IMG/VR virus record: IMGVR_UViG_3300045988_124250
Length of the DNA stretch: 38,456 bases
Direction: 5' to 3' (one strand)
From: a virus
Below, in pieces: positions 1,499-24,469 of this stretch. The translations under genes and the position numbers were made by a program. The notes beneath the pieces are model-generated. The model saw nothing but the letters and a program-made list of their open reading frames with translations, had not been told where the DNA came from and did no database searches. Positions within the stretch are counted from its first letter, which is position 1. Each line of letters begins with the position of its first letter.

Positions 1499-1499
1499 T

Positions 1500-10586: not shown

Positions 10587-10599
10587 TGTCGCGCCCTCC

Positions 10600-10749: not shown

Positions 10750-10815
10750 TTTGTTGTCCTCCCTTATTTGATGATACCATTCTAACACAGAGGGGCTGAT
10801 TTGTCAACCTCTATT

Positions 10816-11295
10816 TTACAGATTTTTGCTTTCTGCTACGAAATATTTTGCGCCATACTGCGCCACAATGTCCTTGACCTTTTTGCTCTCGGCTTGCGTG
10901 GCACAATAGAAATTGAATAACGTGTGTTTGTTGCTAATCTCAATGTATGAGTGGGGAATGTCTCGCAGGTCAAAATCAACAGCGGCACGATACTTTGTGG
11001 GGACAGTCATTTCAATCTTCCACAATTTTTCCTTGCGCGCCAACTCCTCCACCCATTTGACCGCCAGCACGCCGATGAAATTACAGGCGGCGGTAATGCC
11101 CATCTTTGCCAGCGTAGAAACGCCGTCAATGTTGGTCAGGATAATGACATAGGAATAGAAGCCATAGGTCAGCGCATTGATACCAGCGGCTACCCACTTA
11201 TTGCCTTTAACAGTCAAAATGGATTTGATGGTGGACAGCACCACATTCACAGCGGTACAGATAATGAATAGAATAATTGCGTTCATAGTCATCAA
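10816..11295 (-). CDS. membrane protein with 3 N-terminal TM helices plus a soluble domain
   Basis: 159 aa with a GGGGAGGA SD. No motif recognised. Confidence 0.55.
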   Translation of the reverse strand: MMTMNAIILFIICTAVNVVLSTIKSILTVKGNKWVAAGINALTYGFYSYVIILTNIDGVSTLAKMGITAACNFIGVLAVKWVEELARKEKLWKIEMTVPTKYRAAVDFDLRDIPHSYIEISNKHTLFNFYCATQAESKKVKDIVAQYGAKYFVAESKNL

Positions 11296-11492
11296 TCCTC
11301 CCCGAACATAGCTTCCGCCAACCAGTACATAGATGTGCGCAGGTGAGACTGGATTTCAAACAAATCATCACTCAAATTTTGAGCGGCTTGCTTGTCCTCG
11401 CTGTTGGACAGGTTTTTCTTTTCTGCGGCGATTTCGATTGACAGTTGCTCCAACTCATTAGCAACTTGTTTCAGCTTAGAGGGGATGTTCAT
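11292..11492 (-). CDS. hypothetical coiled-coil protein (66 aa)
   Basis: Start MNIPSKLKQ with the conserved AAAGGAATTGATACT-ATG region. TTGACA-N17-TATTAT promoter at 11524-11552. Confidence 0.5.
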   Translation of the reverse strand: MNIPSKLKQVANELEQLSIEIAAEKKNLSNSEDKQAAQNLSDDLFEIQSHLRTSMYWLAEAMFGED

Positions 11493-11638
11493 AGTATCAA
11501 TTCCTTTCTTAATTTCTATTATAATAATAACACATTTATTTGAAAATGTCAAGAAAAATTTTTGCCGTAGTTAAATTCTCACAGGATTAGTTTTTTGTTC
11601 CGTGTAGTTAGTCAGAACTAAACCTGACAAGAGGGGCG

Positions 11639-12010
11639 TTAATGCCCCTCCGTCAGTTTGTTATACATACTCCATAAGGTATCACAGGAATTGTTTGTGT
11701 TTTCAGCCATCCATACAATTTGTTCATCAGTCGGCAGGTATTTATCATCTTGAAAACCAAACCATCTATCACAGGATTGGTATGCCTTATACTCGTCCTC
11801 TGTCAGCTTGCCACGCAACCGCCAATCCCAGCGGATAGAACTTATCAGAGTATACGCGCATGCGCCCGCGATAGTCAGGGTCAGAATGGCGACAGCCGCA
11901 TACAGCACGAATGTGGATTTGAACATACCATACACCAGCAGGATAAAACCACACAGAATGAGGAAATTGCGCGCCCATTTTTTGAGCGTCAGTTTCTGAA
12001 AATCAGACAT
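11639..12010 (-). CDS. membrane protein (2 TM)
   Basis: AAGGAG SD. The C-terminal domain is paralogous to 12025..12201. Confidence 0.55.
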   Translation of the reverse strand: MSDFQKLTLKKWARNFLILCGFILLVYGMFKSTFVLYAAVAILTLTIAGACAYTLISSIRWDWRLRGKLTEDEYKAYQSCDRWFGFQDDKYLPTDEQIVWMAENTNNSCDTLWSMYNKLTEGH

Positions 12011-12024
12011 TGTTCTTACTCCTT

Positions 12025-12201
12025 TCAGTTTAGTCTGTCAAACAGATTCCACAGCGTTTCAGTGGAAATGGACGTTTCATCCATCATTTCGCGGATTTGC
12101 TCCTCGGTGGATAGGTATTTTTCATTTCGCCAGAGAATAGAGCGGATAATCGCCCACGCGCACCCGCCTACGGCGATTAGTGCCAATACAATATTAAACA
12201 C
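12025..12201 (-). CDS. small membrane protein, truncated paralog of 11639..12010 (GTG start)
   Basis: VFNIVLALIAVGGCAWAIIRSILWRNEKYLSTEEQIREMMDETSISTETLWNLFDRLN compared with ...LPTDEQIVWMAENTNNSCDTLWSMYNKL. AGGAG SD. Not present in the ORF track. Confidence 0.4.
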   Translation of the reverse strand: MFNIVLALIAVGGCAWAIIRSILWRNEKYLSTEEQIREMMDETSISTETLWNLFDRLN

Positions 12202-12412
12202 TTTCTCTACTCCTTAACATATTGTCAGTAAATTCATTAGAGAACTTCTCGGCAAAATCATCATCATAGGCGCGATTGGCGATTACCTCCATAACCGTCT
12301 CAATGCCGGACATAAAGTAGGGATTGCCATTGATGGCGTCATACCGCCCGTGGAACATAGGGCATTCACGCAGGTCTGCGAAAACCGCCTGATACGCTTG
12401 CTTTAAATCCAT
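12194..12412 (-). CDS. hypothetical protein (72 aa)
   Basis: AAGGAGG SD. Proximal TTGACT-N17-TACAAT promoter. Confidence 0.55.
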   Translation of the reverse strand: MDLKQAYQAVFADLRECPMFHGRYDAINGNPYFMSGIETVMEVIANRAYDDDFAEKFSNEFTDNMLRSRESV

Positions 12413-12518
12413 AATACATACCTCCTTGTTTCAGTATAGCCATTGTACTACATTACGGGATAGAAGTCAATCGTCAAAATGCACAAAATTGCGGCGAAAA
12501 ATTTGTGAAGTATACCTA

Positions 12519-12570
12519 TTGACAAAAATGCCGGGCGCCACATTCGTGAGCGCGCGGCCGAAAATGTCAA
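12519..12570. promoter_or_regulatory. truncated A-element (hairpin between TTGACA and TGTCAA, no -10 copies)
   Basis: TTGACAaaaatgCCGGGCGCCacattcgtgaGCGCGCGGccgaaaaTGTCAA. Confidence 0.4.
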
Positions 12571-12626
12571 GTGGAAAATTATACAAAAATTGGGCTGGAT
12601 TTTTGTTCATCCAGCCCAAATGATTT

Positions 12627-12875
12627 TTATTCCTTTCCAAAAATAAAATCCGGTTTGAAAATGTAGAGGAATGCTACGGCGTAATGAAAAATCGGAATGA
12701 TTGAGCCGGTGATAACGGTCAACCAGTTAGAGAACGGACTGCGCTTGCTTTCACCCCGGTTCTTGAATACTTCTTGCGCCTGTTCCTTGTTTTTCTTCAT
12801 AGTCGAAATGATGCTTGCGATACCCAGCCAGTAGAGAACAATACCAATGATGTAAATAATGAGAATGATTTTCAT
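12627..12875 (-). CDS. small membrane protein (82 aa)
   Basis: AAAGGAG SD. Two hydrophobic segments. Confidence 0.55.
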   Translation of the reverse strand: MKIILIIYIIGIVLYWLGIASIISTMKKNKEQAQEVFKNRGESKRSPFSNWLTVITGSIIPIFHYAVAFLYIFKPDFIFGKE

Positions 12876-12899
12876 AAGTGTATCTCCTTTTTATTTGAT

Positions 12900-13106
12900 T
12901 TACTTTCCCGATTTCGGAACGAAGCCACGGCAATACTGGCTTGCCCACGTCCAGTCTTTCATTCTCTTGGTGCATCGGCTCTCACACTGAGAGTTCAGCA
13001 CCTTACCGCAGTTATAGCCCCAGTATTGACAGTGATAACAGCAGACATTGCGGATTTCTAAATTGTAGCGGTTCGCCAGTTCCTCTCGAATTTCAAATGC
13101 GGTCAT
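12900..13106 (-). CDS. Cys-rich small protein (68 aa), possibly a zinc finger
   Basis: CCYHCQYWGYNCG...CESRC. AAGGAGG SD. Confidence 0.5.
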   Translation of the reverse strand: MTAFEIREELANRYNLEIRNVCCYHCQYWGYNCGKVLNSQCESRCTKRMKDWTWASQYCRGFVPKSGK

Positions 13107-13196
13107 TGTTTTTACCTCCTTGTTTCATTGTCTACATTATACCATACCTACTGGTTGTTGTCAATAAAAAAATGTGGAATTTCTCCCACATTTTTT

Positions 13197-13424
13197 TTAT
13201 TTACCGATTTCCACTTTTTCAGTGGGGGCAAGCATTTGAAGCACATTAGCCGTAAGCGCGACATCTACTCTGTCATAGGTATTCCCGCAAGTATCGCCCA
13301 CATAGTCGCAGTCATTATCGGCGATAACGTCATACAATTCATTCAGAATGTCATAGGCGTCGCGCAGGGTTTTCCGCTCTTTCTCTGTCATTTTGACATA
13401 AATGGGGGCTTTAATAACTTCCAT
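13197..13424 (-). CDS. hypothetical protein, tandem paralog of 13439..13669
   Basis: MEVIKAPIYVKMTEKERKTLRDAYDILNELYD..NDCDYVG. Confidence 0.55.
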   Translation of the reverse strand: MEVIKAPIYVKMTEKERKTLRDAYDILNELYDVIADNDCDYVGDTCGNTYDRVDVALTANVLQMLAPTEKVEIGK

Positions 13425-13438
13425 TTTGTTTTCCTCCC

Positions 13439-13669
13439 TCAATTACTAATTTCCAGTTTTTCAGCAGGTGCGAATACTCGGCAGATTTCAGCGGCTTGGC
13501 TGAGGTCAAACCGCCCATAGCCATCACCAGTCAACGGATTGCCCACATACTCGCAGTCATTCTCTTCGGCGGCGTTTACAAGGTCATTCAGAATGACATA
13601 AACCTCATGGAGTGAATTGCGCTCTTCATCACTCAACTTGACATAGATAGGGGACTCAATAAATTCCAT
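13439..13669 (-). CDS. hypothetical protein, tandem paralog of 13197..13424
   Basis: MEFIESPIYVKLSDEERNSLHEVYVILNDLVN..NDCEYVG. AAAGGAG SD. Confidence 0.55.
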   Translation of the reverse strand: MEFIESPIYVKLSDEERNSLHEVYVILNDLVNAAEENDCEYVGNPLTGDGYGRFDLSQAAEICRVFAPAEKLEISN

Positions 13670-13740
13670 TTTGGTATTCTCCTTTCTTTTGGTATTATCT
13701 ATTATAGCAGAAATGGGGCTTGTTGTCAAGCCCCAATTTT

Positions 13741-14064
13741 CTACTTTACCACATAAAATTCAGGGTGGCGTTCCTCATTCTTGCGGATGCGCTTGACCAA
13801 CTGCTGGGGTAGACGGTTCTTGCCAGCACTCTTGTATATAGCGACAGCCCGTTCAAAGGTTGCGGGGTATGCGGTGATGATGAAATTCTCATATAAGTCC
13901 AGCACGAGGATAATACCAGTTGAGAGCAAACGCAGGCGGGCGGTTTGGCGTTGGTCGATGACCTCAATCATCACGCGGTCAGAATATCCGAGGTATTCCT
14001 GTAAGAGGGCGAGCCGGTTAGCCCGCTCCTCTGTCAGATGGTTCGACATAGTGTAGTTTTCCAT
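13741..14064 (-). CDS. hypothetical protein (107 aa)
   Basis: Start MENYTMSNH, chosen to avoid overlap with the upstream gene. Weak SD. Confidence 0.45.
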   Translation of the reverse strand: MENYTMSNHLTEERANRLALLQEYLGYSDRVMIEVIDQRQTARLRLLSTGIILVLDLYENFIITAYPATFERAVAIYKSAGKNRLPQQLVKRIRKNEERHPEFYVVK

Positions 14065-14065
14065 A

Positions 14066-14242
14066 TTACCACCCCATATTGAACACGAAGCGCACCAGAC
14101 CGATACAGGCAACGCCATATAGGATAGAGCCAACGAGGAAGTGCCAGTCGTGCGTCTGACGATAGACCATATAGCCGCCGACACACTGAACGCCAGCGAA
14201 GCCAGCGAGGGCGAGGATTGCGAGGATTGCGATAGTAGCCAT
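14066..14242 (-). CDS. small membrane protein (58 aa)
   Basis: MATIAILAILALAGFAG... with an AAAGGAGG SD. Confidence 0.5.
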   Translation of the reverse strand: MATIAILAILALAGFAGVQCVGGYMVYRQTHDWHFLVGSILYGVACIGLVRFVFNMGW

Positions 14243-14358
14243 TTGAATGACCTCCTTTAATTGATGGTATAAGTATAGCACACCTACTGGGCGTTGTCAA
14301 CCGTCAAATTGCACAAATTTCGGGATAAAAAATTGTTGAAAAAAACAAACACAAAATG

Positions 14359-14455
14359 CTTGACAAATTGGCTGGGCTGTGGTATAATGGAATTTCCGCG
14401 CATCAGGGCCGTAGACGCGCGGCCAAAATTATACCATAAAAATGCTATTTTGTCA
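14359..14455. promoter_or_regulatory. A-element copy
   Basis: TTGACA(14359)-17-TATAAT(14382)-GG-aatttCCGCGCatcagggccgtagacGCGCGG...ATTATA(14427)-17-TGTCAA(14450). Confidence 0.55.
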
Positions 14456-14494
14456 ATAGTCAAAATACACAAAAAAAATGAGCCAAATTTTGGC

Positions 14495-14674
14495 TCATTT
14501 CAAAATCTTAAATTCAACCAGTTCGCCGTCTACCATCTTGTGCCAGTACAGTTTGCCATTGTAGCGGATAGCGCGCAAGCGGTAGTCGTGTCTGTCCCAC
14601 GTGGTATACATTTCATCAACCACATACTCGCCGTAGCGGATAGCGGCGGCTATAAAAGTTTTGCTGTAATTCAT
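14495..14674 (-). CDS. hypothetical small protein
   Basis: MNYSKTFIAAAIRYGEY... with a GAGGTG SD. Confidence 0.45.
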   Translation of the reverse strand: MNYSKTFIAAAIRYGEYVVDEMYTTWDRHDYRLRAIRYNGKLYWHKMVDGELVEFKILK

Positions 14675-14684
14675 TTGTCGCACC

Positions 14685-14906
14685 TCACATCCCGCGGACT
14701 GCGCCGCACTCGCTCATACCATTTTCATCAAAGCGAGCGATAGGTTCACCGTTCATCTCGCGGAGTTCAGCCCACGCTTCACCAAAGCCGCCATCAGCCA
14801 GCATCAGCCGCACCAGTTCACACGCTATTTCAAACTTATTCCACGCGGCTTCATCACCGCTCACGCGCACGACCTCGACATTATTGACTACTACACTGTA
14901 TTCCAT
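14685..14906 (-). CDS. hypothetical small protein
   Basis: MEYSVVVNNVEVVRV... with a GAGGGAGG SD. Confidence 0.5.
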   Translation of the reverse strand: MEYSVVVNNVEVVRVSGDEAAWNKFEIACELVRLMLADGGFGEAWAELREMNGEPIARFDENGMSECGAVRGM

Positions 14907-14989
14907 CTTGAATACCTCCCTCATTTGATAATACAATTATAGCACGCTTATTTGTGTTTGTCAATAGAAAAAATAAAAAAAAATCCAGG

Positions 14990-15262
14990 TCAAGCCTGGA
15001 TTTTTTCAACGGTGATGATATTGGAATTGTCCCAGGGGTAAGACACGGAAAACTGCTCATATAGGCCATATATAAACCGCGTCCAGCCGTTGGTACAGAA
15101 CTGTCTACGCCATTCCCGCTCCAAAGGGCGCAACTCCCACAGGATATACAGCTGTTCCTCGATAAGGTCGCAGAGACTGGTATCAACATCCCACTGGATG
15201 GTAGCAGTCTCGCTATGCTGTGCCTCGCTGTCGATGAACCGAACCTTGTACTCACGCGTCAT
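14990..15262 (-). CDS. hypothetical small protein
   Basis: MTREYKVRFIDSEAQ... with a GAGGAGG SD. Followed by the hairpin aatccaggcttgacctggatt plus a T-tract. Confidence 0.5.
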   Translation of the reverse strand: MTREYKVRFIDSEAQHSETATIQWDVDTSLCDLIEEQLYILWELRPLEREWRRQFCTNGWTRFIYGLYEQFSVSYPWDNSNIITVEKIQA

Positions 15263-15378
15263 AATGATGACCTCCTCTGTTTTATGTATACAGTATAGCA
15301 CAGGGGCGCGTAAATGTCAATAGTCAAAATGCACAAATTTCGGGATTTGGAATGTATGATTTTTGTTTGATTTGCCTA

Positions 15379-15474
15379 TTGATAAAATTGCTGGGACATG
15401 GTATAATGGTAAATTTCGCGCGCCAGGACCGTGGGCGCGCGACCGAGTATAACACAAATGGGGCAGAATGTCAA
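15379..15474. promoter_or_regulatory. A-element copy
   Basis: TTGATA(15379)-17-TATAAT(15402)-GG-taaatttCGCGCGCCaggaccgtgGGCGCGCG...AGTATA-17-TGTCAA(15469). Confidence 0.55.
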
Positions 15475-15552
15475 TAGGCAAAATCACCAAAATTTTCAAC
15501 CGAATTATGGGCATAATGCCATATAAAAAAAACAAGGGCTTTCGCCCTTGTC

Positions 15553-15744
15553 TTAGTAGCCCCGCCTTTCCAGTCTTTCCAGCCTATCGGCGAGGGAACG
15601 CGCCAGCAGAACTTTTTTCCATTTCATCAGCTCGGCTTTGTTGCCCTCGGTGTTCGCCCAGATGCCCCAGGTGATGCCCTCGTTGATGATTTCCGCTTTC
15701 TTCATACCCATCAGGTTTTCGAGATACTGTTCAAAATTTGTCAT
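15553..15744 (-). CDS. hypothetical small protein (63 aa)
   Basis: AGAGGAG SD. Terminator hairpin aagggcgaaagccctt lies downstream. Confidence 0.5.
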   Translation of the reverse strand: MTNFEQYLENLMGMKKAEIINEGITWGIWANTEGNKAELMKWKKVLLARSLADRLERLERRGY

Positions 15745-15854
15745 AGCGTTTAGCTCCTCTCTTTTGATGGTTTAATTATAGCACCTATTTCGGGATTTGT
15801 CAATACCTTTTTCAAAATTTTTTCAAAAAATAATAGGGCTTTCGCCCTATTATT

Positions 15855-16163
15855 TTAGCAGTAGGCAAGCGTCATAGTCGCCCATTTCAGCACGGAAATT
15901 TGATTACACGCTTTGCCGATTTCCATAGCTTCACGCTTTGTCGCCACGCGCTTGCTTTTGTCGATGTAATACACGCCCTCACTGAACCACACGCCACAGT
16001 TGCCGCCGTAGTCTCTCACCGCGTCAATGGCTTCTTGTGCGGTCTTACACTCGATGCCCTCAGTGGCAACCTGCCAACCGGATTTGTAGTTTACCTTTTT
16101 GCCCAGTTTGAGCGTCAGCCCGTCATTGTTGCCCAACTTGCGGATAGAACGAATGTTAATCAT
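15855..16163 (-). CDS. hypothetical protein (102 aa)
   Basis: AAAGGAG SD. Proximal TAGACA-N17-TATAAT promoter. Terminator hairpin atagggcgaaagccctat lies downstream. Confidence 0.55.
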   Translation of the reverse strand: MINIRSIRKLGNNDGLTLKLGKKVNYKSGWQVATEGIECKTAQEAIDAVRDYGGNCGVWFSEGVYYIDKSKRVATKREAMEIGKACNQISVLKWATMTLAYC

Positions 16164-16283
16164 AGTGTGTATCTCCTTTGTTGTTTTGTTGTATTCATTA
16201 TAACACGCTTATTTCATTTTGTCTATTGGCAGACTATACAAATCGGGATAGCGAATTTTGTGCGAAATTTTCGCATTTTTCTC

Positions 16284-16345
16284 TTGACAACTGGTGGACT
16301 GCTGTGGTATAATATTTCGGAGCGCCACGTGCCTAATGAGCGCGA
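16284..16345 (+). promoter_or_regulatory. plus-strand TTGACA-N18-TATAAT promoter facing antisense into 16394..16582, a diverged A-element
   Basis: TTGACA 16284-16289 and TATAAT 16308-16313, followed by a GC hairpin-like segment and the TTAAAATTTTAACAAT motif shared with the 17.3-18.0 kb region. Confidence 0.4.
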
Positions 16346-16393
16346 CGATGCTCGTTAAAATTTTAACAATCCAACAGTAAAAAAATAGGACGC

Positions 16394-16582
16394 TTACTCA
16401 GCGTCCCAGGTCAGGATTTCCTCTGCGGTCAAGCCGTAAGGAGCGATTGCCCTTGCCAGTCTCTGTTCAGCGTCAGCGGAGAAATTCGACTGATAGTAGT
16501 AGTCCATCAGATTACAAATGCCAGCCCAGTCATCAGCGGGGATTTCGTCGATGATGTTCTCGATTTCATAGATGTTCTTCAT
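16394..16582 (-). CDS. hypothetical small acidic protein (62 aa)
   Basis: GAGGTA SD. Terminator ggacgctgagtaagcgtcc plus T7 on the minus strand. Confidence 0.5.
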   Translation of the reverse strand: MKNIYEIENIIDEIPADDWAGICNLMDYYYQSNFSADAEQRLARAIAPYGLTAEEILTWDAE

Positions 16583-16651
16583 TTTGCGTACCTCATTTCT
16601 TAATTTCTGTATTTATTATAACACGCTTATTTGTGTTTGTCAATAGTTTTT

Positions 16652-16686
16652 TCAAAAAAAAATAGGGCTTGCGCCCTATTTTTTTA
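16652..16686 (-). terminator. intrinsic terminator (bidirectional: A8-hairpin-T7)
   Basis: atagggcttgcgccctat stem-loop flanked by an A-run and a T-run. It is followed on the minus strand by TTGACA-N17-TATAAT for 16394..16582. Confidence 0.7.
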
Positions 16687-16878
16687 CTTGATTTTCAGAA
16701 TTTCCTTGCCCAGCTTGCCGGACTTGAATACGCGGCGAACGCTCACAATGTTGGCTTTCCGCAAAAACCCTATTGCGATGTTGTGGGCTTCGTTACCCGT
16801 ACGGGCGATGATGGAAAGGGTCTGCCCCTCGGCGTTGATACAGATGTAGGTATTAGCGATAGTGCGTGTCATTGTCAT
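16684..16878 (-). CDS. hypothetical small protein (64 aa)
   Basis: MTMTRTIANTYICINAEGQ... with an AAGGAGG SD. Confidence 0.5.
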   Translation of the reverse strand: MTMTRTIANTYICINAEGQTLSIIARTGNEAHNIAIGFLRKANIVSVRRVFKSGKLGKEILKIK

Positions 16879-16885
16879 TTCCTCC

Positions 16886-17122
16886 TTAATACATTTCCTC
16901 GGACTTGTCAAGATAGAAATGGTCAATCTTGGTCATGTCCAGCAGTTCGTACTTTTCCACACCCTCGGCAAGCATAGCGTTCAGTTTGTCCACCAGCTTT
17001 GTGCCATTGTCCTTGTTTGCCTGAACGAACAGGAAATCGGAACAGGTTTTCTCCCACTGTGTCCCTCTGTTGTAGACAACAGGCTCTTTGGTGGTGTAGC
17101 AGACTCCATAGATGTTAGACAT
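16886..17122 (-). CDS. hypothetical small protein (78 aa); first gene of the minus-strand early array
   Basis: MSNIYGVCYTTKEP... with an AAGGAGG SD. TTGACA-N17-TACAAT promoter at 17150-17180. Confidence 0.5.
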   Translation of the reverse strand: MSNIYGVCYTTKEPVVYNRGTQWEKTCSDFLFVQANKDNGTKLVDKLNAMLAEGVEKYELLDMTKIDHFYLDKSEEMY

Positions 17123-17269
17123 TGTATCGTCCTCCTTTGTTTTACTGTAATCATTGTAGCACACTTGGGGTAATTTGTCAAGAGGTTTTTTCAAAAATAA
17201 CCTATTTATTTTCAGGACAGAGATTGTGATTATTTTAACAATCGGATTTGCGATTTTTTTCTTTAACAC

Positions 17270-18000
17270 TTTAATGTGGTGAAGTCTGGGGCGTTGCGAC
17301 CGTGTTCGGCATCCAACAGTGAATGTGAAATTTTTAACAATTAAACAGCAACTTCACCACATCCACACATTGTGAAATTTTTAACAATCTTGCTCGGACA
17401 GCGAATGTATCAACTGTGCCGTGCGTGTCCTCCTTGCTACCTGTGCAAGCGCACTCTTTACTCTCTTGCTCTTGGCTCTCACATTGTTAAATTTTTAACA
17501 ATCTTGCTCACCCCTCTGTGAGAGCTGTGTGTTGCGGGATGCGCGCTGTTCAGCGCCTGCGCCGCTGTATTGTTTGGCAATTGTGCGAGGGCTTATTCTT
17601 GGGCGATTAGGGCCGTTAACGGCGTTGATTCCAAAAGAGAAATAGAATACTTACATTAGATTTGTGGTGCGCGGTTCCCGGTGAGCCGACCGGTGGGAAG
17701 CGCGTTCCATTCTCTTATTGTCGGCCTACTCTCTCTCCCTACCTACTACCCATAGCCACCCATACCCTACCATACCATACTACTATACTACATTGTTAAT
17801 ACATTAACAATGTATCTATCATTGTGTTGTGTTGTGTGTTGTTCTCTTTGTCTGTTGGTCGCTCGCTCGTTGGCTCGCTCTGCCTTGTCCACTGTGCCGT
17901 GCGTGTCCTTGTCCTCTCTTGGTTGAGTGATTGTTAAAAATTTAACAATCTCGCTACATCGTTAATCTTTTAACAATCTTGCTACATTGTTAAATTTTTA
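17270..18000. other. ORF-free control region with nested palindromes, iteron-like repeats and strand-asymmetric tracts (candidate origin or regulatory switch)
   Basis: Contains the perfect 20 bp palindrome ATTGTTAAATTTTTAACAAT twice (17478 and 17985) and the 26 bp palindrome tacattgttaatacattaacaatgta at 17783. TGTGAAATTTTTAACAAT occurs twice, TTAACAATCT(T/C)GCT four times and ACTGTGCCGTGCGTGTCCT twice. A ~75 nt nearly G-free tract at 17717-17790 and a ~75 nt A-free tract at 17822-17895 flank the 26 bp palindrome. No ORF of 60 aa or more. Confidence 0.6.
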
Positions 18001-18028
18001 ACAATCTTAGGGCAACAAAAAACCTCCC

Positions 18029-18124
18029 TCAATGAGGGAGGCAGATGAGGCACATCAAGATGCCAGTACCAGCGATGACAGCAACCGCGGTGATGAAGCG
18101 CACGACTTTGTAGATGATAGACAT
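18029..18124 (-). CDS. 31 aa hydrophobic peptide
   Basis: MSIIYKVVRFITAVAVIAGTGILMCLICLPH. AAGGAGG SD 6 nt upstream. TAGACA-N17-TATAAT promoter at ~18150-18190. The stop is embedded in the terminator cctccctc-aat-gagggagg plus T-run. Confidence 0.45.
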   Translation of the reverse strand: MSIIYKVVRFITAVAVIAGTGILMCLICLPH

Positions 18125-18447
18125 AGACTATTCCTCCTTGATTGATGATACTATTATACCAGATTTCAGGATGCGTGTCTATTGGCAGAATACACAAATT
18201 TGTGAGAGATTTTTTGTGGAGTTTGTATTTATTGCGAATGAGGACCGCGACAGCCATTCGCGGTCCTGTGAGTTGAGGGGCTGTATTGGGGATGGTCTAG
18301 CCTTTCCGCGTGCGCCAAGCCCAAGAAGGCCTCGATAGTGTTCAGATTTTTTCTCAGATAAAAACCGACCGGGGGGGGTGGGTTTCGGGAAAAAATTTTT
18401 TTTGATTTTTATTTTTTTGTTTGGCTGGTACAAACTCTCACCAAAAC

Positions 18448-18507
18448 TTTTTTCAATTCAGATAACGGTAGAACTTTTTTCAATTTGGATAACGGTAGAA
18501 CTTTTTT
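18448..18507. repeat. tandem ~29 bp direct repeat ACTTTTTTCAATT(C/T)(A/G)GATAACGGTAGA x2
   Basis: Two adjacent near-identical copies in an AT-rich ORF-free stretch between the control region and the AT-rich minus-strand module. Confidence 0.7.
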
Positions 18508-18589
18508 AATTATTTTTTAATTTTATTCCTACCAAAAAACCAAATAGGAAAAAATAAAATTAATCCTATTAATGCTAATGCTTCAAGAA

Positions 18590-18733
18590 TCATTTTTTAT
18601 TCTCCTTCTTAGGACGACCACGTTTAGGGTTTTCACCCCATACAATTTGATGAACTGCTTTAGTAGCATAATAATTAGCTTTTTTCTGCATCTTAGCGGC
18701 AAGTGCATTACCAAAACTTTTATACTTAGGCAT
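18590..18733 (-). CDS. small basic protein (47 aa)
   Basis: MPKYKSFGNALAAKMQKKANYYATKAVHQIVWGENPKRGRPKKENKK. TGA stop. Not in the ORF track (shorter than 60 aa). Confidence 0.4.
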   Translation of the reverse strand: MPKYKSFGNALAAKMQKKANYYATKAVHQIVWGENPKRGRPKKENKK

Positions 18734-18735
18734 AA

Positions 18736-19053
18736 TTATATTACTCCATTAATAGCATCAGTTAGTTTTTGAGGAATTTCAATTCCTAAATCATCTAATA
18801 CTTCTTTAGCGCGTAAATACTCTATTCTACTACCATATCGTTTACTCACTCGCACTCCAACATAAATTTCACCATTGTATTCAATAGTATAAAATTCCAT
18901 ACGGTCGCCAGGAGCAATACCATATTTTTGTCTTAAATTTTTAGGAAAAACAAGACGGCCTAAACTATCAACCTAATGAATAGAACCTTCATTATGAACT
19001 ATTGCTTGGCCTTCTCGCATTACAATATCAAAATAATTTTTTCCATCTTCCAT
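18736..19053 (-). CDS. AbrB/MazE/SpoVT-family DNA-binding protein with an in-frame TAG at 18973-18975
   Basis: Reading through TAG gives MEDGKNYFDIVMREGQAIVHNEGSIH-(TAG)-VDSLGRLVFPKNLRQKYGIAPGDRMEF..., a swapped-hairpin AbrB motif. TAA stop. Missed by the ORF track because of the TAG. Confidence 0.5.
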
Positions 19054-19057
19054 AAAA

Positions 19058-19351
19058 TCACTTCTCCTCCATTACATGGCATTTTTCTCCAGAAGACTTA
19101 ATGATATGCCAAATATATTCACCATCATTAATAACTCCTAAATACTTGTCATTATTATTTACATATTTATCCAATTCCCAACCTGTACCAACAGCATTAA
19201 TCTGGAAATATTTTTCAGGTGCCTTTTCATCATAAACTGCCCATACGCATGGATTATTATTTACATCCAATCCAGTAGATACAATATCAGTTAAATGGTC
19301 CATAATATGAGTTGACCCTGGAGTTTCAATTAAATATTTATAAATCTTCAT
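19058..19351 (-). CDS. hypothetical protein (97 aa)
   Basis: AT-rich ORF with a TGA stop. Confidence 0.5.
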   Translation of the reverse strand: MKIYKYLIETPGSTHIMDHLTDIVSTGLDVNNNPCVWAVYDEKAPEKYFQINAVGTGWELDKYVNNNDKYLGVINDGEYIWHIIKSSGEKCHVMEEK

Positions 19352-19352
19352 A

Positions 19353-19670
19353 TTACTCCTCTTTTAACACTTCTGCCCAAACGCGCACATCTCTATCTTC
19401 CGCGTTAATAACTTGATTTTTATTATATACAAAAATAGGACAATGTAGTGGATAACAATTTATTTTAGTATCAATATTATCCACATAAATAATCATATTA
19501 TTTTTAATATAGGGCCAATAATCTTGACCTTCACCCAATAGGATACAAGTATATCCTGCTTCAGTTAATTGTTCAAGATTAATATATTGATTAAATGATA
19601 CACCCATAAATAGAATAGTAGTGCCTCGTTTAAAATTTTTCAAAACATATTTAATCTATTTTTTAGTCAT
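19353..19670 (-). CDS. hypothetical protein; start extended through an in-frame TAG
   Basis: ATG at 19670 overlaps the upstream stop (gATGActaa). MTKK-(TAG)-IKYVLKNFKRGTTILF... Confidence 0.45.
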
Positions 19671-19869
19671 CACCATTCCATCCTTCCGGTAAAAATATAT
19701 CTAAAATTCTTTGTAATAAATCGCTTGCGGCGAATATTGGACCGCCGATAAAAAATATTAAACAAACAATTAATTTATTTTCACCGGCGCTTTGAATTGC
19801 ATCAATATATTCAAACATTACTAATGCTGAAATGATTATCCAAAAGATAACAATTACATAGGCTCCCAA
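19663..19869 (-). CDS. small membrane protein (68 aa)
   Basis: Two hydrophobic segments. TAA stop. Confidence 0.45.
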   Translation of the reverse strand: MGAYVIVIFWIIISALVMFEYIDAIQSAGENKLIVCLIFFIGGPIFAASDLLQRILDIFLPEGWNGDD

Positions 19870-20252
19870 AAATATTCACCATCCTTATATTTATTTACTC
19901 GAACATTACGGATTAGCATTCTTATAGAGCTGTCTTTCTCTAATTGATTTGCGTATCCAGGCGGTGGTGGGCTCTTGGACAAAACTGAATAAGCGATTAT
20001 ATTAGAATTTTCATAATTAGAGAAGTCTGTGATTTTTGCGAATTCCTTCGCATTAAATTGAAGATGTAATAGTAAACAACAAGGGAAACTTTCTTCAATA
20101 TTATTTGCATCTTCATAATAATCTGCTATTAAATTATATTTTTGTTCAATAGTTTCAGGGTCTAGAAGTTTAACTACTCCCTTTGTAAACAATATATTAT
20201 ATATAATAGATAATATTAATAATATACTTAATATAACAATAGCAATTACCAT
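19854..20252 (-). CDS. membrane-anchored protein (132 aa, N-terminal TM)
   Basis: MVIAIVILSILLILSIIYNILF... with an AAAAGGAGAAG SD. Confidence 0.5.
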   Translation of the reverse strand: MVIAIVILSILLILSIIYNILFTKGVVKLLDPETIEQKYNLIADYYEDANNIEESFPCCLLLHLQFNAKEFAKITDFSNYENSNIIAYSVLSKSPPPPGYANQLEKDSSIRMLIRNVRVNKYKDGEYFWEPM

Positions 20253-20279
20253 AAACTTCTCCTTTTATTTTTTATTATA

Positions 20280-20397
20280 ATAATAATACAAAAAATTTTT
20301 TTTATTGTCAAATTTTTTCCAATTAATAGTATCGTTTAAAAATTTTTTAAATGCATTTATTAAAATTTGACACCTGGAAAAATTTTTTGTATAATGA
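20280..20397. promoter_or_regulatory. divergent sigma70-like promoter pair (minus TTGACA-N17-TATTAT; plus TTGACA-N17-TATAAT)
   Basis: Plus TTGACA 20367-20372 and TATAAT 20390-20395. Minus TTGACAataaaaaaaattttttgTATTAT at ~20285-20313. Both carry the AAAAATTTTTTG spacer motif. Confidence 0.6.
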
Positions 20398-20420
20398 AGA
20401 CGTAAAAAAATCTGGAGGTA

Positions 20421-21485
20421 ATGATGATAAAATTAGATTATTCCTTACAAACTCCAGAAGAAAGAAATGAATTAGTCAAGAAAATATTAGAGGAAACCCC
20501 AGACCCCTCTCCTCGATATTTAGAAATATTAGGGGACTATATCATTCTTTGTATGGAGAAACAAGAGAAGAAGGAGCGTAAACTATTAACTGATAATCGT
20601 ATGGCAACAGTTAATAAACGTGAAACATCTTTTGAAGGTCTTGTTTCCCAATTTGAGAATGGCGAAGATGGAATTTATAATTTAATTACTGAAAATAAAA
20701 ATACAATATTTTAGCCTAAAATTACAATTACTAAAAAAGATATAGAAGAAATACCTCATTTAAAATAGTTGAGAGACGCCATTACTACTTGGGAAGCCAA
20801 ATTACGAGTTAGTGAAGGACGCGAAGCATTTATAATTAAACGTGCTATTATTGAAATGCGTAAAGATTAGTATGTTATTAAAAATGCGGTTCGTCGTCCA
20901 ATTGTTATGACTAAAATTACTCGTTCAAGAAATTTTATTCCATTAGAGGACACAACTTGCATTTTTGATGATGATGGTTATCCAATCCCGGATGGCATTT
21001 CACTATTAGATCCTAGAGTATGTTCTGCAATTTTATGTAATTATTCTCGTTTAAAACAAGATAGTTGGGGAGATTTTGAAAGAGATTTATGGTATATTAT
21101 GGAAGATTTTGATAATTTATGTACCATCGCTCTTAAAGATTATCCACTATATGACAGAATAGTTGAATATAAAATTGATGGATTATAGAATATAGACATC
21201 CAAAAGAGAATCCAAGAGGAATTTAATATTACCCATAGTTTAGAATATATTTCTAGTTTATGGCGCAATAAAATTCCTAAATTAATCGCTTCAGCGGCTG
21301 AAGACCAATACCTATATGATTACTATTTACATAAAGCAAAAGGTAAATATAAAAAATGTAGTCGCTGTGGGCAAATTAAATTAGCACATAATAAATATTT
21401 TAGCAAAAATAAAACTAGTAAAGATGGTTATTATAGTATTTGTAAAAAATGCCGCAATGCCAAAAACAAGGGCAAACAGTTATAA
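20421..21485 (+). CDS. hypothetical protein with a C-terminal CxxC-X17-CxxC zinc ribbon; 4 in-frame TAG
   Basis: GGAGG SD. Track fragments 20421..20714 and 20907..21188 are in the same frame, with only TAG codons between them. Ends ...CSRCGQIKLAHNKYFSKNKTSKDGYYSICKKCRNAKNKGKQL-TAA. Confidence 0.6.
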
Positions 21486-21527
21486 TTTTGAGATGCCTGT
21501 TATTGGATAGATATAAGGAGGAAAATT

Positions 21528-22724
21528 ATGGCTGTAGATAATAGTAATAAAGTATATTATTGCGAACGATGTAATAGAACTATGGGCGCTGACCAATTCT
21601 ATACATCTAATAATTTAGAAAAATATCCAAATGATGGAAAACTCCCTCAATGTAAAAAATGCATCACAATGCTTGTAGATAACTGGAATCCAGAAACTTA
21701 TATGTGGATTTTACAAGAGATTGATGTACCATACGTTCCTGATGAGTGGAGTAAATTAATGATGAAATATGGACAAGATAAATCTAAATTAACTGGTATG
21801 AGTATTTTAGGTAGATATTTGTCCAAAATGAAACTTAAACAATATAAAGATTATAGATGGAAAGATTCTGAGTTTTTATAGGAAGTGGCTAATAATAAAT
21901 TAGAGCAAACTATGAAACGACAAGGCTATGATGCCTAGCAAATAGCAACTGCTATTGCTAAATCTACCGTCGCCATTCCAGAAGAAGAATTAAAACCTTA
22001 TACTCCTGAATTACCAGAGCGTTTTAGAGATGGTGATAATTATTTTGACCAATAGAATGGTATTGAACATGACCCAGCAGATGACCTCGATTTAACAGAA
22101 GAAGATATTCTATATCTTCGTATGAAATGGGGTAAAGCTTATAAACCAGAAGAATGGGTTAAATTAGAGCAACTCTATGAAGAAATGATGAGTTCTTATG
22201 ATATTCGTGGCGCTGGTCATATTGATACATTAAAGTTAATTTGTAAAACATCCTTGAAGGCGAACTAGCTAATCGATATTGGTGATATCGAAGGTTTCCA
22301 AAAGATGAGCAAGGTTTATGATAGTCTAATGAAATCAGGTAATTTCACCGCCGCTCAAAACAAGGCTGATACAGGAGAAGCATTTGATTCTATCGGAGAA
22401 TTAGTGGCTATGTGTGAAACTGAAGGATTTATTCCTCGGTATTACACAGAAGGTCCAAAAGATAAAGTTGATGAAACTCTACAAGATTTAAAGAATTATA
22501 CACATACATTGGTCACCGAAGAAATGAATCTAGGTAATCTCATTGAAGGTGCTATCAAGAAAATGCAAGAAGAAGAAAATAAAGAAGAAGACCAAGATAT
22601 TGAAGAAGATTTAACGATGGAAGAGATTGACCATCTCAAAGATGAAGATTTAATTGAATATAATGATTTCCTTGAAGAAGAGTCTGAAATAGATGCTTAG
22701 ACTTTGAGGAATTTAGAAGGATAA
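21528..22724 (+). CDS. hypothetical protein with an N-terminal zinc finger and a very acidic C-terminus (possible small terminase or DNA-binding subunit); 5 in-frame TAG
   Basis: AAGGAGG SD. Track fragments 21528..21881 and 22305..22700 are in the same frame. TAA stop at 22722. Confidence 0.55.
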
Positions 22725-22725
22725 T

Positions 22726-24459
22726 ATGGCTTTATAGGATTTACTTGATTTATCTTAGAAGCGTAAAAAGATTGGAATTTCAGAGGACCGTCTTCGTGCA
22801 ATTATACCAGAAGCAAGATAGTACATAGCCTTTTGGAGAGAATATCCAGATATGTTTATCGACTTTATGGCAGGACCCGATGGCGGCCCTCAACATTTTA
22901 AACTCTATTTTTATTAGAGAATTTTTTTGCGCGCTGCGATGCGTCATAAATATATTTATGCAGTATTTCCTCGTGCTTATTCAAAATCTTTTTTATCAAT
23001 GATGGTCTTAATGTGTCGTGCGATTTTATATCCCAGATGTAAATTATTTATTACTTCTGGTGGTAAAGAACAAGCGGCTGGAATTGTAAAAGAAAAAGTC
23101 CAAGAAATTTGTACTCTTATTCCTGCATTTTAGAAAGAAATAGATTGGCGCCGTGGCTAGACACTTGAAGGAAAAGATTATGTTAAATATGTATTTAAAA
23201 ATGGTTCATATTTTGACAATATTGCCGCGAGAGAGTCTTCTCGTGGTAAACGTCGCCATGGTGGTTTAATCGAAGAGTGTGTTGGTGTTGATGGTGATAT
23301 TCTATCACAAGTTATTATCCCTACAATGAATATTTCTCGTATGTGTATGGATGGTACTACTCAACCTGATGAAACTCTTAATAAATCTCAAATTTATATT
23401 ACTACTGCTGGGTATAAAAATACATTCCCTTATGATAAATTAATTCAATTATTAGTTTGGGAAATTGTTAAACCTTAGCAATCCATTATTATGGGTGGTA
23501 CTTATCGTATTCCTGTTTTAATGAAATTATTGGATGCGAATTTTATTAAAGACCTAAAAATGGACGGAACATTCAATGAAAGTTCATTTGACCGAGAATA
23601 TGAAAGTAAATGGTCTGGTACTGTAGAAGATGCGTTTTTTAATGCTGAAATATTTGATAGAAATAGAATATTAAATTAGCCTGAATATGAAGCATCTGGG
23701 CGTAATTCAAAATTAGCATCTTATGTACTTGCGGTCGACGTTGGCCGTAAAGGATGTGATTCAGTTATTTGTGTATTTAAAGTGACCCCACAATCACAAG
23801 GTGGTTCAATTAAAAGTTTAGTAAACTTATATACATTGTCTGATGAGCATTTTGAAGACCAAACTATTAAATTAAAAAAATTATATTATAAATATAATGC
23901 TGATAGAATTGTAATTGATGGTAATGGTTTAGGAATTGGTTTAATTGATTATATGGTTAAAACATAGATTGACCCTGAAACCAACGAAATCTTCCCTGAT
24001 TTTGGCGTTGTTAATGATGATGATTTATTTTACAAGAAATATAAAACATCTAATACCGTATTAGATGCTATGTATATTATAAAAGCTAATGCGCCACTTA
24101 ATACAGAAGCTCACGCTATTGCTAAATCACAACTCGCTTCTGGAAAAGTAAAATTTTTAATTGATGAGCGCGTAGCAAAAAATAAACTTCTTGCTAAAAA
24201 GAAAGGTCAAACTATGACTCCAGAATAGAGGGCAGAAGAATTAAAACCATTTACTTTAACTTCCATATTAAAAGAAGAAATGATGAATTTGCGTGAAGAA
24301 ACTGAAGGAGTAAATATTATCCTGAAGCAAGCAAATAAAAGTATCCGAAAAGATAAATTTTCTGCTTTTGAATATGGACTATATTATTTAAAATTAGAAG
24401 AAGATAAAAAGAAGAAACGTAAAAAGTTTAATGCTAAAGATTGGTGTTTCTTAAACTAA
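22726..24459 (+). CDS. terL: terminase large subunit; ~10 in-frame TAG
   Basis: Reading through TAG gives ...EYPDMFIDFMAGPDG...RRHGGLIEECVGVDGD...SQIYITTAGY...FDREYESKWSG...GRKGCDSVICVF...RIVIDGNGLGIGLIDYM..., which are the ATPase and RNaseH-like nuclease motifs of TerL. Track fragments 22927, 23491 and 23782 share one frame. Alternative start at ATG 22852. Confidence 0.7.
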
Positions 24460-24469
24460 GGAGGTAATT

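Follow-up and report, generated by a model that had tools for sequence, protein, structure and literature searches.

The question raised by this locus is which protein, of the host or of the phage itself, is served by the inverted repeats that crowd a gene-free stretch of DNA at the head of the early genes. The stretch, flagged by the initial annotation at positions 17270-18000, belongs to a TAG-recoded Clostridia phage, kin of phAss-1, and the 38,456 nt analysed here (the window) are only about a quarter of a genome estimated at 130 kb. The flagged region lies inside a divergent control region, between leftward early genes, which carry host-type sigma-70 promoters, and rightward late genes. 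The early block of ~17.7 kb is compositionally distinct (GC ~42-53% vs ~30%), and the GC-to-AT boundary that had been placed within the flagged region is found further to the right, at ~18400. On the left, the array of repeats is bounded by an early promoter of the sigma-70 type on the minus strand (TTGACA-17-TACAAT, 17153-17181), which drives the genes 17122-16684. On the right, it is bounded by a small minus-strand transcription unit (18022-18181) consisting of a promoter (18181-18153), an ORF (18124-18029) and an intrinsic terminator (18042-18022). The product of this ORF is a 31-aa hydrophobic peptide, and its gene stands between the flagged region and the GC/AT boundary. A consensus antisense promoter is also present on the plus strand at 16284-16313.

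The description of the region as ORF-free holds: no credible ORF is found in 17190-18020 and none starting with ATG is preceded by a ribosome-binding site, the flagged region contains only chance frames of at most 49 aa, and no single-stop reassignment of the genetic code opens a long frame. All of the repeats and tracts listed by the initial annotation are present as well, some of them with corrections. The sequence TGTGAAATTTTTAACAAT does occur in two copies (17324 and 17371), but it is not the perfect 20 bp palindrome that had been claimed, these palindromes having 9-nt perfect arms around a non-self-complementary centre of 2 nt. The motif TTAACAATCT(T/C)GCT is found four times, as reported (17381, 17495, 17942 and 17970), and the 19-nt direct repeat ACTGTGCCGTGCGTGTCCT twice on the plus strand (17413-17431 and 17891-17909), with a spacing of 478 nt rather than 476. 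A 26 bp palindrome, with 11-nt arms around a 4-nt centre, is present at 17789-17814 and not at 17783, and an imperfect GC-rich hairpin at ~17659-17694, within the spacer 17505-17715. From a compositional perspective, a single G is present in 17727-17795 and no A in 17822-17890. The first of these skewed segments comprises a nearly G-free C/T/A tract on the plus strand (17727-17788), the minus strand being G-rich and C-poor with four GGG runs; its sequence and length differ among close relatives and its composition is kept. The second is a 69-nt A-free G/T/C tract on the plus strand, the only run of this kind of at least 40 nt in the window (the maximum in shuffled sequences being 47). GT-rich low-complexity tracts are found at the same junction in two relatives (L043 and L025).

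The main feature of the region is an inverted repeat of 18-20 bp, present in eight copies in 17190-18020; a ninth copy at 16352 agrees with the recurrence of the motif noticed near 16350. Within the window, the pattern ATTGTTAA-N4-TTAACAAT gives 11 matches with at most three mismatches against 1.22 expected, a number reached in 0/100 shuffles, and nine of the 11 lie at 16351, 17223, 17322, 17369, 17483, 17792, 17930, 17958 and 17986. The octamer TTAACAAT occurs 16 times in the window instead of the 4.4 expected, with 13 occurrences within 16363-18005. The repeat can be written as TTGT(T/G)AA-N4-TT(A/C)ACAA and matches the published operator of the NADH/NAD+-sensing repressor Rex in its clostridial form. 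When the whole window is scanned with TTGTKAA-N4-TTMACAA at up to two mismatches, 10 matches are obtained against 1.56 expected; nine of them, each with at most one mismatch and five perfect, fall in 16352-18004.

These nine boxes are numbered here R0 to R8. R0 (TCGTTAAAATTTTAACAA, 16352-16369) has one mismatch. R1 (TTGTGATTATTTTAACAA, 17224-17241) is invariant in six relatives, and transcription from the promoter 17181-17153 would start ~86 nt downstream of its centre. R2 (ATGTGAAATTTTTAACAA, 17323-17340) has as its counterpart in one relative (L005) TTGTGAAAATTTTCACAA, a perfect general Rex consensus. R3 (TTGTGAAATTTTTAACAA, 17370-17387) is a perfect TTGTKAA-N4-TTMACAA, and R4 (TTGTTAAATTTTTAACAA, 17484-17501) corresponds perfectly to the clostridial consensus. 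The central box R5 occupies 17782-17822, with its core at 17793-17810 inside the extended palindrome 17789-17814. Finally, R6, R7 and R8 (17931-17948, 17959-17976 and 17987-18004) are arranged in tandem with a 28-bp period, immediately beyond the terminator that belongs to the 31-aa peptide gene. TnrA/GlnR (TGTNA-N7-TNACA) and CIRCE were considered as identities of the motif and rejected on spacing or half-site order, from their known consensus sequences, and neither LexA boxes nor cre sites were found in the window. A CRP/FNR-type host factor may bind these sites, because the Rex core contains TGTNA-N6-TNACA.

Rex is a dimer of winged-helix and Rossmann-fold architecture; it occupies DNA at low NADH relative to NAD+, and NADH releases it. 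Its box in Clostridiaceae is TTGTTAANNNNTTAACAA (Ravcheev 2012, as quoted in PMC9600882, PMC5367854 and PMC4600107) and has been confirmed by DAP-seq and EMSA in C. thermocellum (PMC8457756), the general form being TTGTGAANNNNTTCACAA (PMC3441419, PMC6391272). In C. bescii, hydrogenase and class-V aminotransferase genes have been validated by EMSA as Rex targets. The Rex operators of Clostridia and other Gram-positives share with the phage boxes the same 18-bp TTGTTAA-N4-TTAACAA, the TTGTGAA/TTCACAA variants and the A/T-rich free spacer; the phage operators match the host Rex consensus rather than a phage-specific site. In bacterial genomes (GTDB), the motif in tandem is located upstream of genes for NuoE/HydC-type 2Fe-2S subunits, for thiolase and acyl-CoA dehydrogenase and for class-V aminotransferases, in MAGs of Ruminococcaceae, Acutalibacteraceae and Erysipelotrichaceae; these NAD(H)-linked genes are of the Rex-regulon types. 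The setting is different, since host operators are single or paired, at or near the promoter of a metabolic gene, whereas the phage carries eight in a gene-free region, mostly distant from promoters and, unlike host Rex systems, with no Rex gene nearby in the 38 kb window.

A second line of evidence comes from the comparison of six close relatives, in which 7 of the 112 core columns of the boxes are variable (6%), against 8 of 32 in the N4 spacers (25%) and 155 of 687 in the other noncoding positions (23%; Fisher p = 2e-5 and 0.005 for the two comparisons). The changes seen at position 5 of the half-sites are T/G swaps, and the block 17768-17850 hardly changes, its only variable column being 17816. 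In a matrix built family-wide, information is found only in the 7+7 core, the values of which are inflated by the choice of the sites through the pattern itself, the N4 being A/T-rich and the flanks holding at most 0.33 bit. These data indicate that the half-sites are under purifying selection and that spacers and surroundings drift, and this selection has the shape of the Rex motif. The earlier view of an operator cluster rather than a random spacer is thus sustained, both by selection on the half-sites and by the position within the divergent early/late control region. Searching 16200-18500 by blastn against 50,697 deposited phage genomes gave no match.

At the same early/late junction, relatives carry arrays of Rex boxes (up to 13 per kb), of LexA boxes, or of both. 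Rex boxes in relatives amount to 10 perfect ones at a 24-bp period (L088), 13 per kb (L086), 31 in 12 kb (L092) and 17 in 5.6 kb (L136), and the junction holds four exact Gram-positive LexA boxes in L063 and eight such LexA boxes together with 10 Rex boxes in L001. In phAss-1 the junction holds one Rex box, one LexA box and one copy of "motif 2", the palindrome CACTTTA-N6-T(G/A)AAGT. Motif 2, which in the window lies at 17267-17286, is a second recurrent site of the phage family (L027, L040, L064, phAss-1 at 1046, and three times in L003) and shows no enrichment within the window itself. In the cultured Enterococcus phage H1 (OP534061), the junction contains five boxes of the TTGTGAA/TTCACAA type and none of the TTGTTAA type, along with perfect CcpA cre sites TGTAAGCGCTTACA. 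Because H1 carries Rex boxes of this type and cre sites, the box variant appears to track the host clade, and it is matched in this one relative with a known host. The best reading of the junction in this phage family would be that of a landing pad for host global repressors.

On these grounds, we propose with moderate confidence that the palindromes are operators of the host Rex and that, through the array, the phage links its programme to the redox state of the host. Since eight Rex sites head its early genes, the phage probably reads or soaks up the host regulator. Binding of the boxes by Rex is inferred, as are the promoters affected and the direction of their response. When NADH is low, as many as eight Rex dimers would coat ~0.8 kb and occlude two weak divergent promoter-like sites whose -35 hexamers are the half-sites of R5 (plus strand TTGTTA-18-TATCAT, minus strand TTGTTA-17-TATAGT, each with 9/12 matches), directed into the two skewed tracts. 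The effect of bound Rex may extend to the early promoter P17181 and the nearby junction element, damping or insulating them, and the ninth box R0, centred ~+40 downstream of the antisense promoter 16284-16313, would act as a roadblock. In a reduced, actively fermenting host, NADH would strip Rex from the DNA and the region would open. Some observations fit less well with regulation by host Rex. Most boxes, instead of overlapping the nearest consensus promoter, stand 70-800 nt upstream of it (those other than R0 and R5 being ~86 to 850 nt upstream of P17181), which is atypical of a simple repressor, and the only one overlapping promoter-like hexamers, R5, does so with weak hexamers. Moreover, 41/60 relatives have fewer than two boxes within the 20 kb examined per locus, and the array is therefore dispensable. 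No relevant report of Rex boxes in phages was found in the literature searched.

The number of boxes raises a different possibility, an unlikely one, namely that the array is a DNA sponge titrating host Rex as the phage genome replicates. With 9-31 high-affinity boxes per copy, the phage would outnumber the few dozen Rex sites of the host, Rex would leave the chromosome, and the NADH-reoxidising and fermentation regulon would be derepressed without any anti-repressor protein; in relatives, LexA-box arrays would in the same way act on the SOS response and cre arrays on catabolite control. In the strict form of this proposal, which we also regard as doubtful, the only function of the noncoding array would be to sequester host global repressors (Rex, and LexA and CcpA in the sister phages) with no phage protein involved. 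Multiplicity and tight tandem packing (eight boxes here, up to 31 in 12 kb) go far beyond what promoter control needs, most boxes are distant from promoters, and every type of operator that accumulates at the junction belongs to a global regulator. Furthermore, a whole clostridial genome is predicted to hold only 27 Rex sites (PMC9600882), and tandem perfect boxes are rare in bacteria, with 21 stretches in 185,579 bacterial species genomes (at least five of them from this phage family) against 45 in IMG/VR. On the other hand, some lineages hold one to three boxes at fixed positions relative to promoters. Two such positions recur across lineages, one at ~+40 relative to antisense promoters and another ~30 nt ahead of the -35 hexamer in early promoters, a promoter-plus-box arrangement like that of R0 being present twice in L003 and also in L008, and this fixed placement argues for regulation in cis rather than titration. 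No precedent for a phage sponge of a transcription factor was found in the literature searched.

Regulation by host Rex has also to be weighed against a binder of the phage's own, since the family of the present phage accounts for 27 of another 43 IMG/VR loci carrying tandem perfect boxes, a concentration that would also be compatible with a family-specific protein whose gene lies outside these 38 kb. This rather improbable reading takes the palindromes as centromere-like repeats, or else operators, recognised by a phage protein encoded beyond the window, with a specificity coinciding with or mimicking that of Rex. Runs of 8-13 evenly spaced repeats do resemble ParR/ParB-type centromeres or the operators of early/late switches, about a quarter of the estimated genome is visible, and the flank CT(T/C)GCT is conserved in several lineages; its conservation past the right end of the Rex core in the lineage of the window also speaks against host Rex. 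However, the Rex consensus is exact at 14/14 positions with the same T/G wobble tolerated, and the Enterococcus phage has the TTGTGAA type of box instead; given the exact host LexA and cre arrays in sister phages, several independent coincidences would be required. No phage protein was found whose presence tracks the boxes in the 20-kb loci of relatives. The best candidate, the 102-aa protein encoded at 15855-16163, looked enriched (14/19 vs 12/41), but its conservation of 75-79% in relatives without boxes led to its rejection. No HTH, RHH or Par domain was detected by Pfam and PHROGs in the 15 window proteins scanned, those flanking the array included, and the small proteins neighbouring the array have no Pfam or PHROG function. 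The AbrB-like and zinc-ribbon proteins suggested earlier as operator binders find no support. As for Rex itself, tblastn revealed no homologue in the 38 kb window or in ~150 related loci, using a query validated by its match to an annotated rex gene at 51% identity, and none is present in the complete genome of phAss-1, which carries a Rex box.

The initial annotation had also put forward an origin of replication, an iteron cluster, a partition site or a pac site. The proposal that the region is an origin, with the repeats as iterons and the skewed tracts as an unwinding or R-loop priming zone, is very improbable in our estimation. It would account for the local GC skew, which goes from -0.73 to positive across the central palindrome, for the RNA-like strand being G-rich in both outward directions with a G4-capable minus strand, and for the weak divergent promoters, which could prime R-loops. 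Nevertheless, inverted rather than direct repeats are involved and they correspond to sites of a host repressor, not of an initiator, no DnaA-box cluster is present in the flagged region, and the latter is not AT-rich (GC 42-57%). The repeat type moreover changes among relatives (Rex, LexA, cre), which is unlike a phage initiator site, and the iteron, partition and pac proposals likewise find no support at these coordinates. When GC skew was computed as had been suggested, the cumulative minimum within the 38 kb window fell at ~20.0-20.5 kb, where the direction of transcription flips, and not here. A better candidate for an origin or a pac site is the junction element at 18355-18500 on the plus strand, conserved family-wide and located at the GC/AT boundary, outside the flagged region. 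It consists, in order, of a G-run, TTTCGGGAAAAAATTTTTTTT, TGGTACAAAC and two copies of the 27-nt repeat AACTTTTTTCAATTCAGATAACGGTAG, an iteron-plus-AT-rich structure, and in one relative (L109) its counterpart immediately precedes the promoter that serves the first plus-strand gene; the element could be an activator site, an origin or a pac site.

A product of the region itself, either non-coding RNA (a single one or several) or a small protein read in an alternative code, is scarcely probable and largely refuted. This proposal draws on relatives in which the corresponding place carries tRNA-like RNAs driven by promoters (L008, 6530-7010) and on the weak promoters that flank the central box. 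No consensus promoter is found inside the flagged region, Rfam gave no match at the gathering threshold and only chance-level ones at E<1, and no tRNA or tmRNA was detected. The segment 17505-17715 shows no sign of structured RNA, with folding z-scores of -0.54 and -0.12 against shuffles and no covariation, and no complementary 11-mers that could suggest a trans-acting antisense role of the skewed tracts exist elsewhere in the window.

If the coupling to host Rex is true, gut phages of an abundant family, large and stop-codon-recoded, link their programme to the redox state of the anaerobic host or manipulate that state, by way of a modular junction in which the operator array for one host global regulator is exchanged for that of another (Rex, LexA, CcpA). 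It would then become feasible to predict from sequence which host signals a phage reads, and the box variant would provide a clue to the host clade of uncultured phages. It would also offer a candidate protein-free decoy mechanism; should the array indeed be a sponge, the takeover would dispense with proteins altogether and reprogramme host redox, SOS and carbon metabolism. The Rex idea is directly testable because the cultured Enterococcus phage H1 has the same architecture.

Several known systems offer points of comparison. E. coli datA, a sink for DnaA, and the iteron sinks of plasmids of the incA type are clusters of sites that lower the concentration of a free regulator. They act on the replication initiator of the same replicon or cell, whereas the phage array would target a metabolic repressor of the host, and a phage-borne sink of the latter kind is not described in the literature searched. 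In phage T5, the border of the pre-early DNA is occupied by iss, an extensive untranslated region rich in palindromes and repeats that includes eight DnaA boxes of the host (bioRxiv 10.1101/866236). The likeness consists in a block dense in palindromes and repeats, with boxes for host proteins, at the edge of the first-expressed genes, here those of the compositionally distinct early block. By analogy, the array might be a barrier or injection-stop element at the inner border of early DNA that enters first, binding resident host proteins, which would pause DNA entry, insulate the early block, or block exonucleases or read-through; we deem this quite unlikely. In phAss-1 the module of Rex box, LexA box and motif 2 does lie 0.9 kb from the PhageTerm-defined left end. 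However, the contig ends of relatives coincide with the junction only inconsistently, and Rex, being NADH-sensitive and cytosolic, has no obvious link to DNA entry. In addition, the T5 region is highly conserved in T5-like phages, while the array described here is variable and often absent.

Closer to the proposed coupling with host Rex are the phages known to listen to a few host regulators, namely Spo0A for phi29 and LexA for several temperate phages. Among the latter, GIL01 of Bacillus thuringiensis uses host LexA as its switch, with one or two dinBoxes over a promoter and a phage co-repressor. As in GIL01, operators of a host repressor are found inside the phage control region, and sister phages carry exact LexA-box arrays; the window itself differs in having no LexA box. 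In phi29 and Nf, which are lytic, host Spo0A gates early transcription and replication through 0A boxes located close to early promoters and origins, and phage development thus depends on the physiological state of the host (PMC2731898). What is shared with the present phage is the presence of consensus sites for a host global regulator near the early promoters; here, as judged from sequence alone, the regulator would be Rex (LexA and CcpA in relatives), and the sites are more numerous and organized in arrays. The features of host-regulator co-option found in this phage family are consensus sites in the control region, the lack of a Rex homologue in the 38 kb window and the related loci and, in phage H1, a box variant matching the host.

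The 38.4 kb window, a piece of a large tailed phage, falls into two strongly differing halves. The early block (~700-18400; GC ~42-53%) carries ~40 small genes on the minus strand, written in the standard code, and, in the stretch scanned (15.5-19 kb), consists of successive units with near-consensus sigma-70 promoters (TTGACA-17-TATAAT) and intrinsic terminators. From ~18500 onward GC falls to ~30%, and the plus-strand structural block starting at 20421 (terminase, portal, capsid, tape measure) is readable only with TAG as sense; the plus-strand genes of the late block (18500-38456, ~30% GC) hold 0-10 sense TAG codons each, and no suppressor tRNA was found within the window. TerL is 44% identical to that of phAss-1, a 136 kb code-15 phage with a predicted Clostridia host (PMC10607447), and 52% identical to those of Enterococcus phages H1, EF1 and VRE9_4. 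At least 300 relatives were found in IMG/VR, and the early/late GC dichotomy is also seen in most relatives and in phAss-1. The early block further includes a paralogous cassette of two adjacent genes (2773-3652 and 5319-6160, sharing PTAYKF..RERKAN and LDRKNTVDKKPT motifs), a tandem pair encoding ~75-aa proteins (13197-13424 and 13439-13669) and, at its left edge, short tandem repeats: (AAAAATGAAATG)n at 1-45 and GACTTATGATGCTTTTT twice at 451-487, after a terminator.

The initial annotation had flagged 17270-18000 as an ORF-free operator or iteron cluster exactly at the composition boundary. All the elements it listed are present, with small coordinate corrections, and no credible ORF exists between the start codon at 17122 and the terminator at 18022; the composition break itself lies ~400 nt further right. 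The left boundary of the ORF-free stretch is a minus-strand early promoter (17181-17153), and its right boundary the terminator of a tiny 31-aa-peptide unit (18022-18181). In 17122-18022 no tRNA or Rfam family was detected, and neither thermodynamics nor covariation pointed to a structured RNA; a hidden ORF or non-coding RNA is essentially excluded as an explanation of the region. Its dominant feature is the inverted repeat ATTGTTAA-N4-TTAACAAT, with nine copies between 16351 and 18005 against 1.2 expected in the whole window. A 19-nt direct repeat stands at 17413 and 17891, a tract with a single G in 69 nt lies left of the central palindrome, and an A-free run of 69 nt (17822-17890) is longer than in every shuffle. 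The minus strand of 17727-17770, downstream of a predicted weak minus-strand promoter at the central palindrome, holds four GGG runs in ~33 nt (GGGTATGGGTGGCTATGGGTAGTAGGTAGGG) and fits a G-quadruplex pattern.

Rex is the NADH/NAD+-sensing repressor of Gram-positive bacteria, with the operator core TTGT(T/G)AA-N4-TT(A/C)ACAA; its general consensus is TTGTGAANNNNTTCACAA, and DAP-seq and EMSA experiments in C. thermocellum have verified the Clostridiaceae form, TTGTTAANNNNTTAACAA. Nine sites in the window match this core with at most one mismatch, five of them perfectly. The palindromes are quite probably host Rex sites, and three independent tests support the identification: selection, host genomes and the absence of a phage Rex. 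Among six relatives, ~90% identical, 6% of the columns vary at the 14 core positions of the boxes, versus 25% in the 4-nt spacers and 23% in the remaining region (p = 2e-5 and 0.005). Where half-site position 5 changes, T and G are exchanged, the same difference that separates the two published consensus forms, and one of the six relatives carries a perfect general Rex consensus. Furthermore, a family-wide matrix of 365 sites has information in the 7+7 core only, the spacer being A/T-rich. When bacteria were scanned, with each species represented by a single genome, pairs of perfect boxes separated by 8-38 nt turned up in just 21 stretches, at least five of which belong to this phage family and had been binned into Clostridia MAGs (Christensenellales, Acutalibacteraceae, Lachnospiraceae). 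Ten of 11 other stretches examined lie upstream of genes for NuoE/HydC-type hydrogenase subunits, thiolase and acyl-CoA dehydrogenase, or class-V aminotransferase; Rex targets validated by EMSA in C. bescii include hydrogenases and a class-V aminotransferase. Finally, a Rex query, which recovered an annotated rex gene in other records, found no match in the window, the ~150 loci fetched or the phAss-1 genome, which is complete.

The array is not peculiar to the window genome. In IMG/VR, 45 stretches with perfect boxes in tandem were found, and 27 of the 43 new loci share genes with the phage family; in at least 19 array-bearing loci the array likewise lies upstream of the first late-block genes. 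The densest array has 13 boxes per kb (locus L086), another has ten perfect boxes with a 24-bp period (L088), and 31 boxes are spread over 12 kb in a third locus (L092). Between array-bearing lineages the boxes alone persist, the remaining region being unalignable. Some family members have other operators at the same junction: four exact Gram-positive LexA boxes (CGAACNNNNGTTCG) in the junction array of locus L063, and eight together with ten Rex boxes in L001. The coordinates of this LexA (SOS) box are 539-1157 in L001 (eight) and 1541-1833 and 3193 in L063 (five). The region preceding the first early promoter of phAss-1 combines single Rex and LexA boxes with one copy of a third palindrome, CACTTTA-N6-TAAAGTG. 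This palindrome occurs alongside Rex and LexA boxes in many family members (window 17267-17286; phAss-1 locus L127, 1046-1066; L027, 7170-7650; L040, 6972-7236; L064, 8598-8653) and could not be assigned to any known regulator. phAss-1 also encodes nicotinamide phosphoribosyltransferase, ribose-phosphate pyrophosphokinase and nicotinamidase for NAD+ salvage (locus L128, record 98196-101298), which fits a family-level interest in the NAD pool.

The most telling comparison case is the cultured Enterococcus phage H1 (L150, OP534061.1), which has the same order of late block, ~1 kb of noncoding DNA and early block. Its noncoding gaps (10555-11534 and 19767-20582) contain five Rex boxes, each a TTGTGAA/TTCACAA variant, with no clostridial box among them, and five perfect CcpA cre sites (TGTAAGCGCTTACA) against 0.1 expected. 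In the only relative whose host is known, the box variant agrees with that host's clade, and the remaining junction motifs are textbook host-regulator sites; a private phage operator is hard to reconcile with both. A phage-encoded binder of the boxes might be suggested by the restriction of the arrays to one family, three quarters of the genome being outside view; we regard it as improbable, and no phage protein tracking the boxes was found in the 20-kb loci. The single candidate, a 102-aa protein, was rejected as box binder because it is well conserved in box-free relatives. Two further motifs in the H1 gaps are the ARG-box-like TGAATnnnnGTTCA and AAATAACA(nn)TGTTATTT, a repeat specific to the phage that occurs 29 times in 30 kb versus 5.7 expected.

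As for the initial proposal, the operator cluster stands, the predicted Rex-type operators being under selection, but the origin of replication does not: the array consists of inverted, host-type sites, their type is not kept among relatives, DnaA boxes form no cluster and the region is not AT-rich, all of which makes an origin here highly unlikely. A better candidate than the array for an origin, a pac site or a late-activator site is a family-wide element at 18355-18500, outside the flagged region, with direct 27-nt repeats beside an A/T run. It lies exactly at the GC/AT boundary, where a G-run is followed by TTTCGGGAAAAAATTTTTTTT, TGGnCAAAAC and 1-3 repeat units of ~27 nt (CAATTTTCAATTTCRRAWTACGR type). 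One relative (L109) has, within 700 nt, the array, then this element and, directly after it, the promoter that serves the first plus-strand gene; in L063 a LexA box is embedded in the element. Between array and element, the gene of the 31-aa hydrophobic peptide (MSIIYKVVRFITAVAVIAGTGILMCLICLPH; 18029-18124, minus strand) is flanked by a near-consensus promoter of its own and a strong terminator. A 47-aa basic protein (18590-18733, minus strand) ends in the AT-hook-like KRGRPKKENKK, occurs in 13 of 19 box-bearing versus 9 of 41 box-poor relatives and has no Pfam or PHROG match. At the equivalent of the array position, locus L008 (6530-7010, minus strand) has three promoter-driven ~115-nt RNAs, each with a tRNA-like acceptor stem and T-arm; they gave a sub-threshold Rfam match to the tmRNA tRNA-like domain (16.8 bits, E = 1e-4) and no ARAGORN call.

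The Rex-type sites lie in a divergent control region between the host-transcribed early genes and the late block. Some boxes stand at recurrent positions, at ~+40 of consensus antisense promoters (16284-16313 with the box at 16352; likewise in L003 and L008) and, in other lineages, ~30 nt upstream of early -35 hexamers. The central box (17793-17810) would provide the -35 hexamer for each member of a predicted pair of weak, divergent promoters facing into the two compositionally skewed tracts. In the six relatives the ~80-nt block around it is near-invariant, with one variable column (17816); further left, the G-poor tract varies in sequence and length and keeps its composition. At low NADH, Rex dimers would coat the junction region, and NADH would release them, so that the junction would respond to the host redox state. 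We lean slightly towards host Rex operators with a sensor mechanism as the overall reading; the redox-sensor mechanism in particular is proposed more tentatively, as a possibility that falls somewhat short of probable. Consensus plus-strand promoters inside the minus-strand early block, followed by a GC-rich hairpin (AATTCCGGCCG...CGGCCGG) or a Rex box, recur as a unit across the phage family (window 16284-16400 and 6790-6900; L023, 3070; L026, 1321; L043, 5042; L061, 6554; L079, 272), and their products would be short antisense or small RNAs.

Titration, with the array serving as a Rex sink while the phage genome replicates, is the strongest functional rival. Since each genome copy carries 8-31 boxes and the prediction for an entire clostridial genome is 27 Rex sites, replication would create a large sink, and most boxes lie 70-800 nt from any promoter; in relatives the sink would be for LexA or CcpA. 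We consider titration unlikely; it is not mutually exclusive with sensing and, if true, would be a new mechanism. A barrier like the iss of T5 is alike in anatomy and very improbable.

The literature searched contained no description of a phage genome with Rex-box arrays or with a modular 'host repressor landing pad'. Host LexA sites are embedded in the genome of phage GIL01. Embedded host-regulator sites are also known as DnaA boxes in T5 and as Spo0A boxes in phi29, and it is to these Spo0A boxes that the proposed redox response of the Rex-box junction may be likened.
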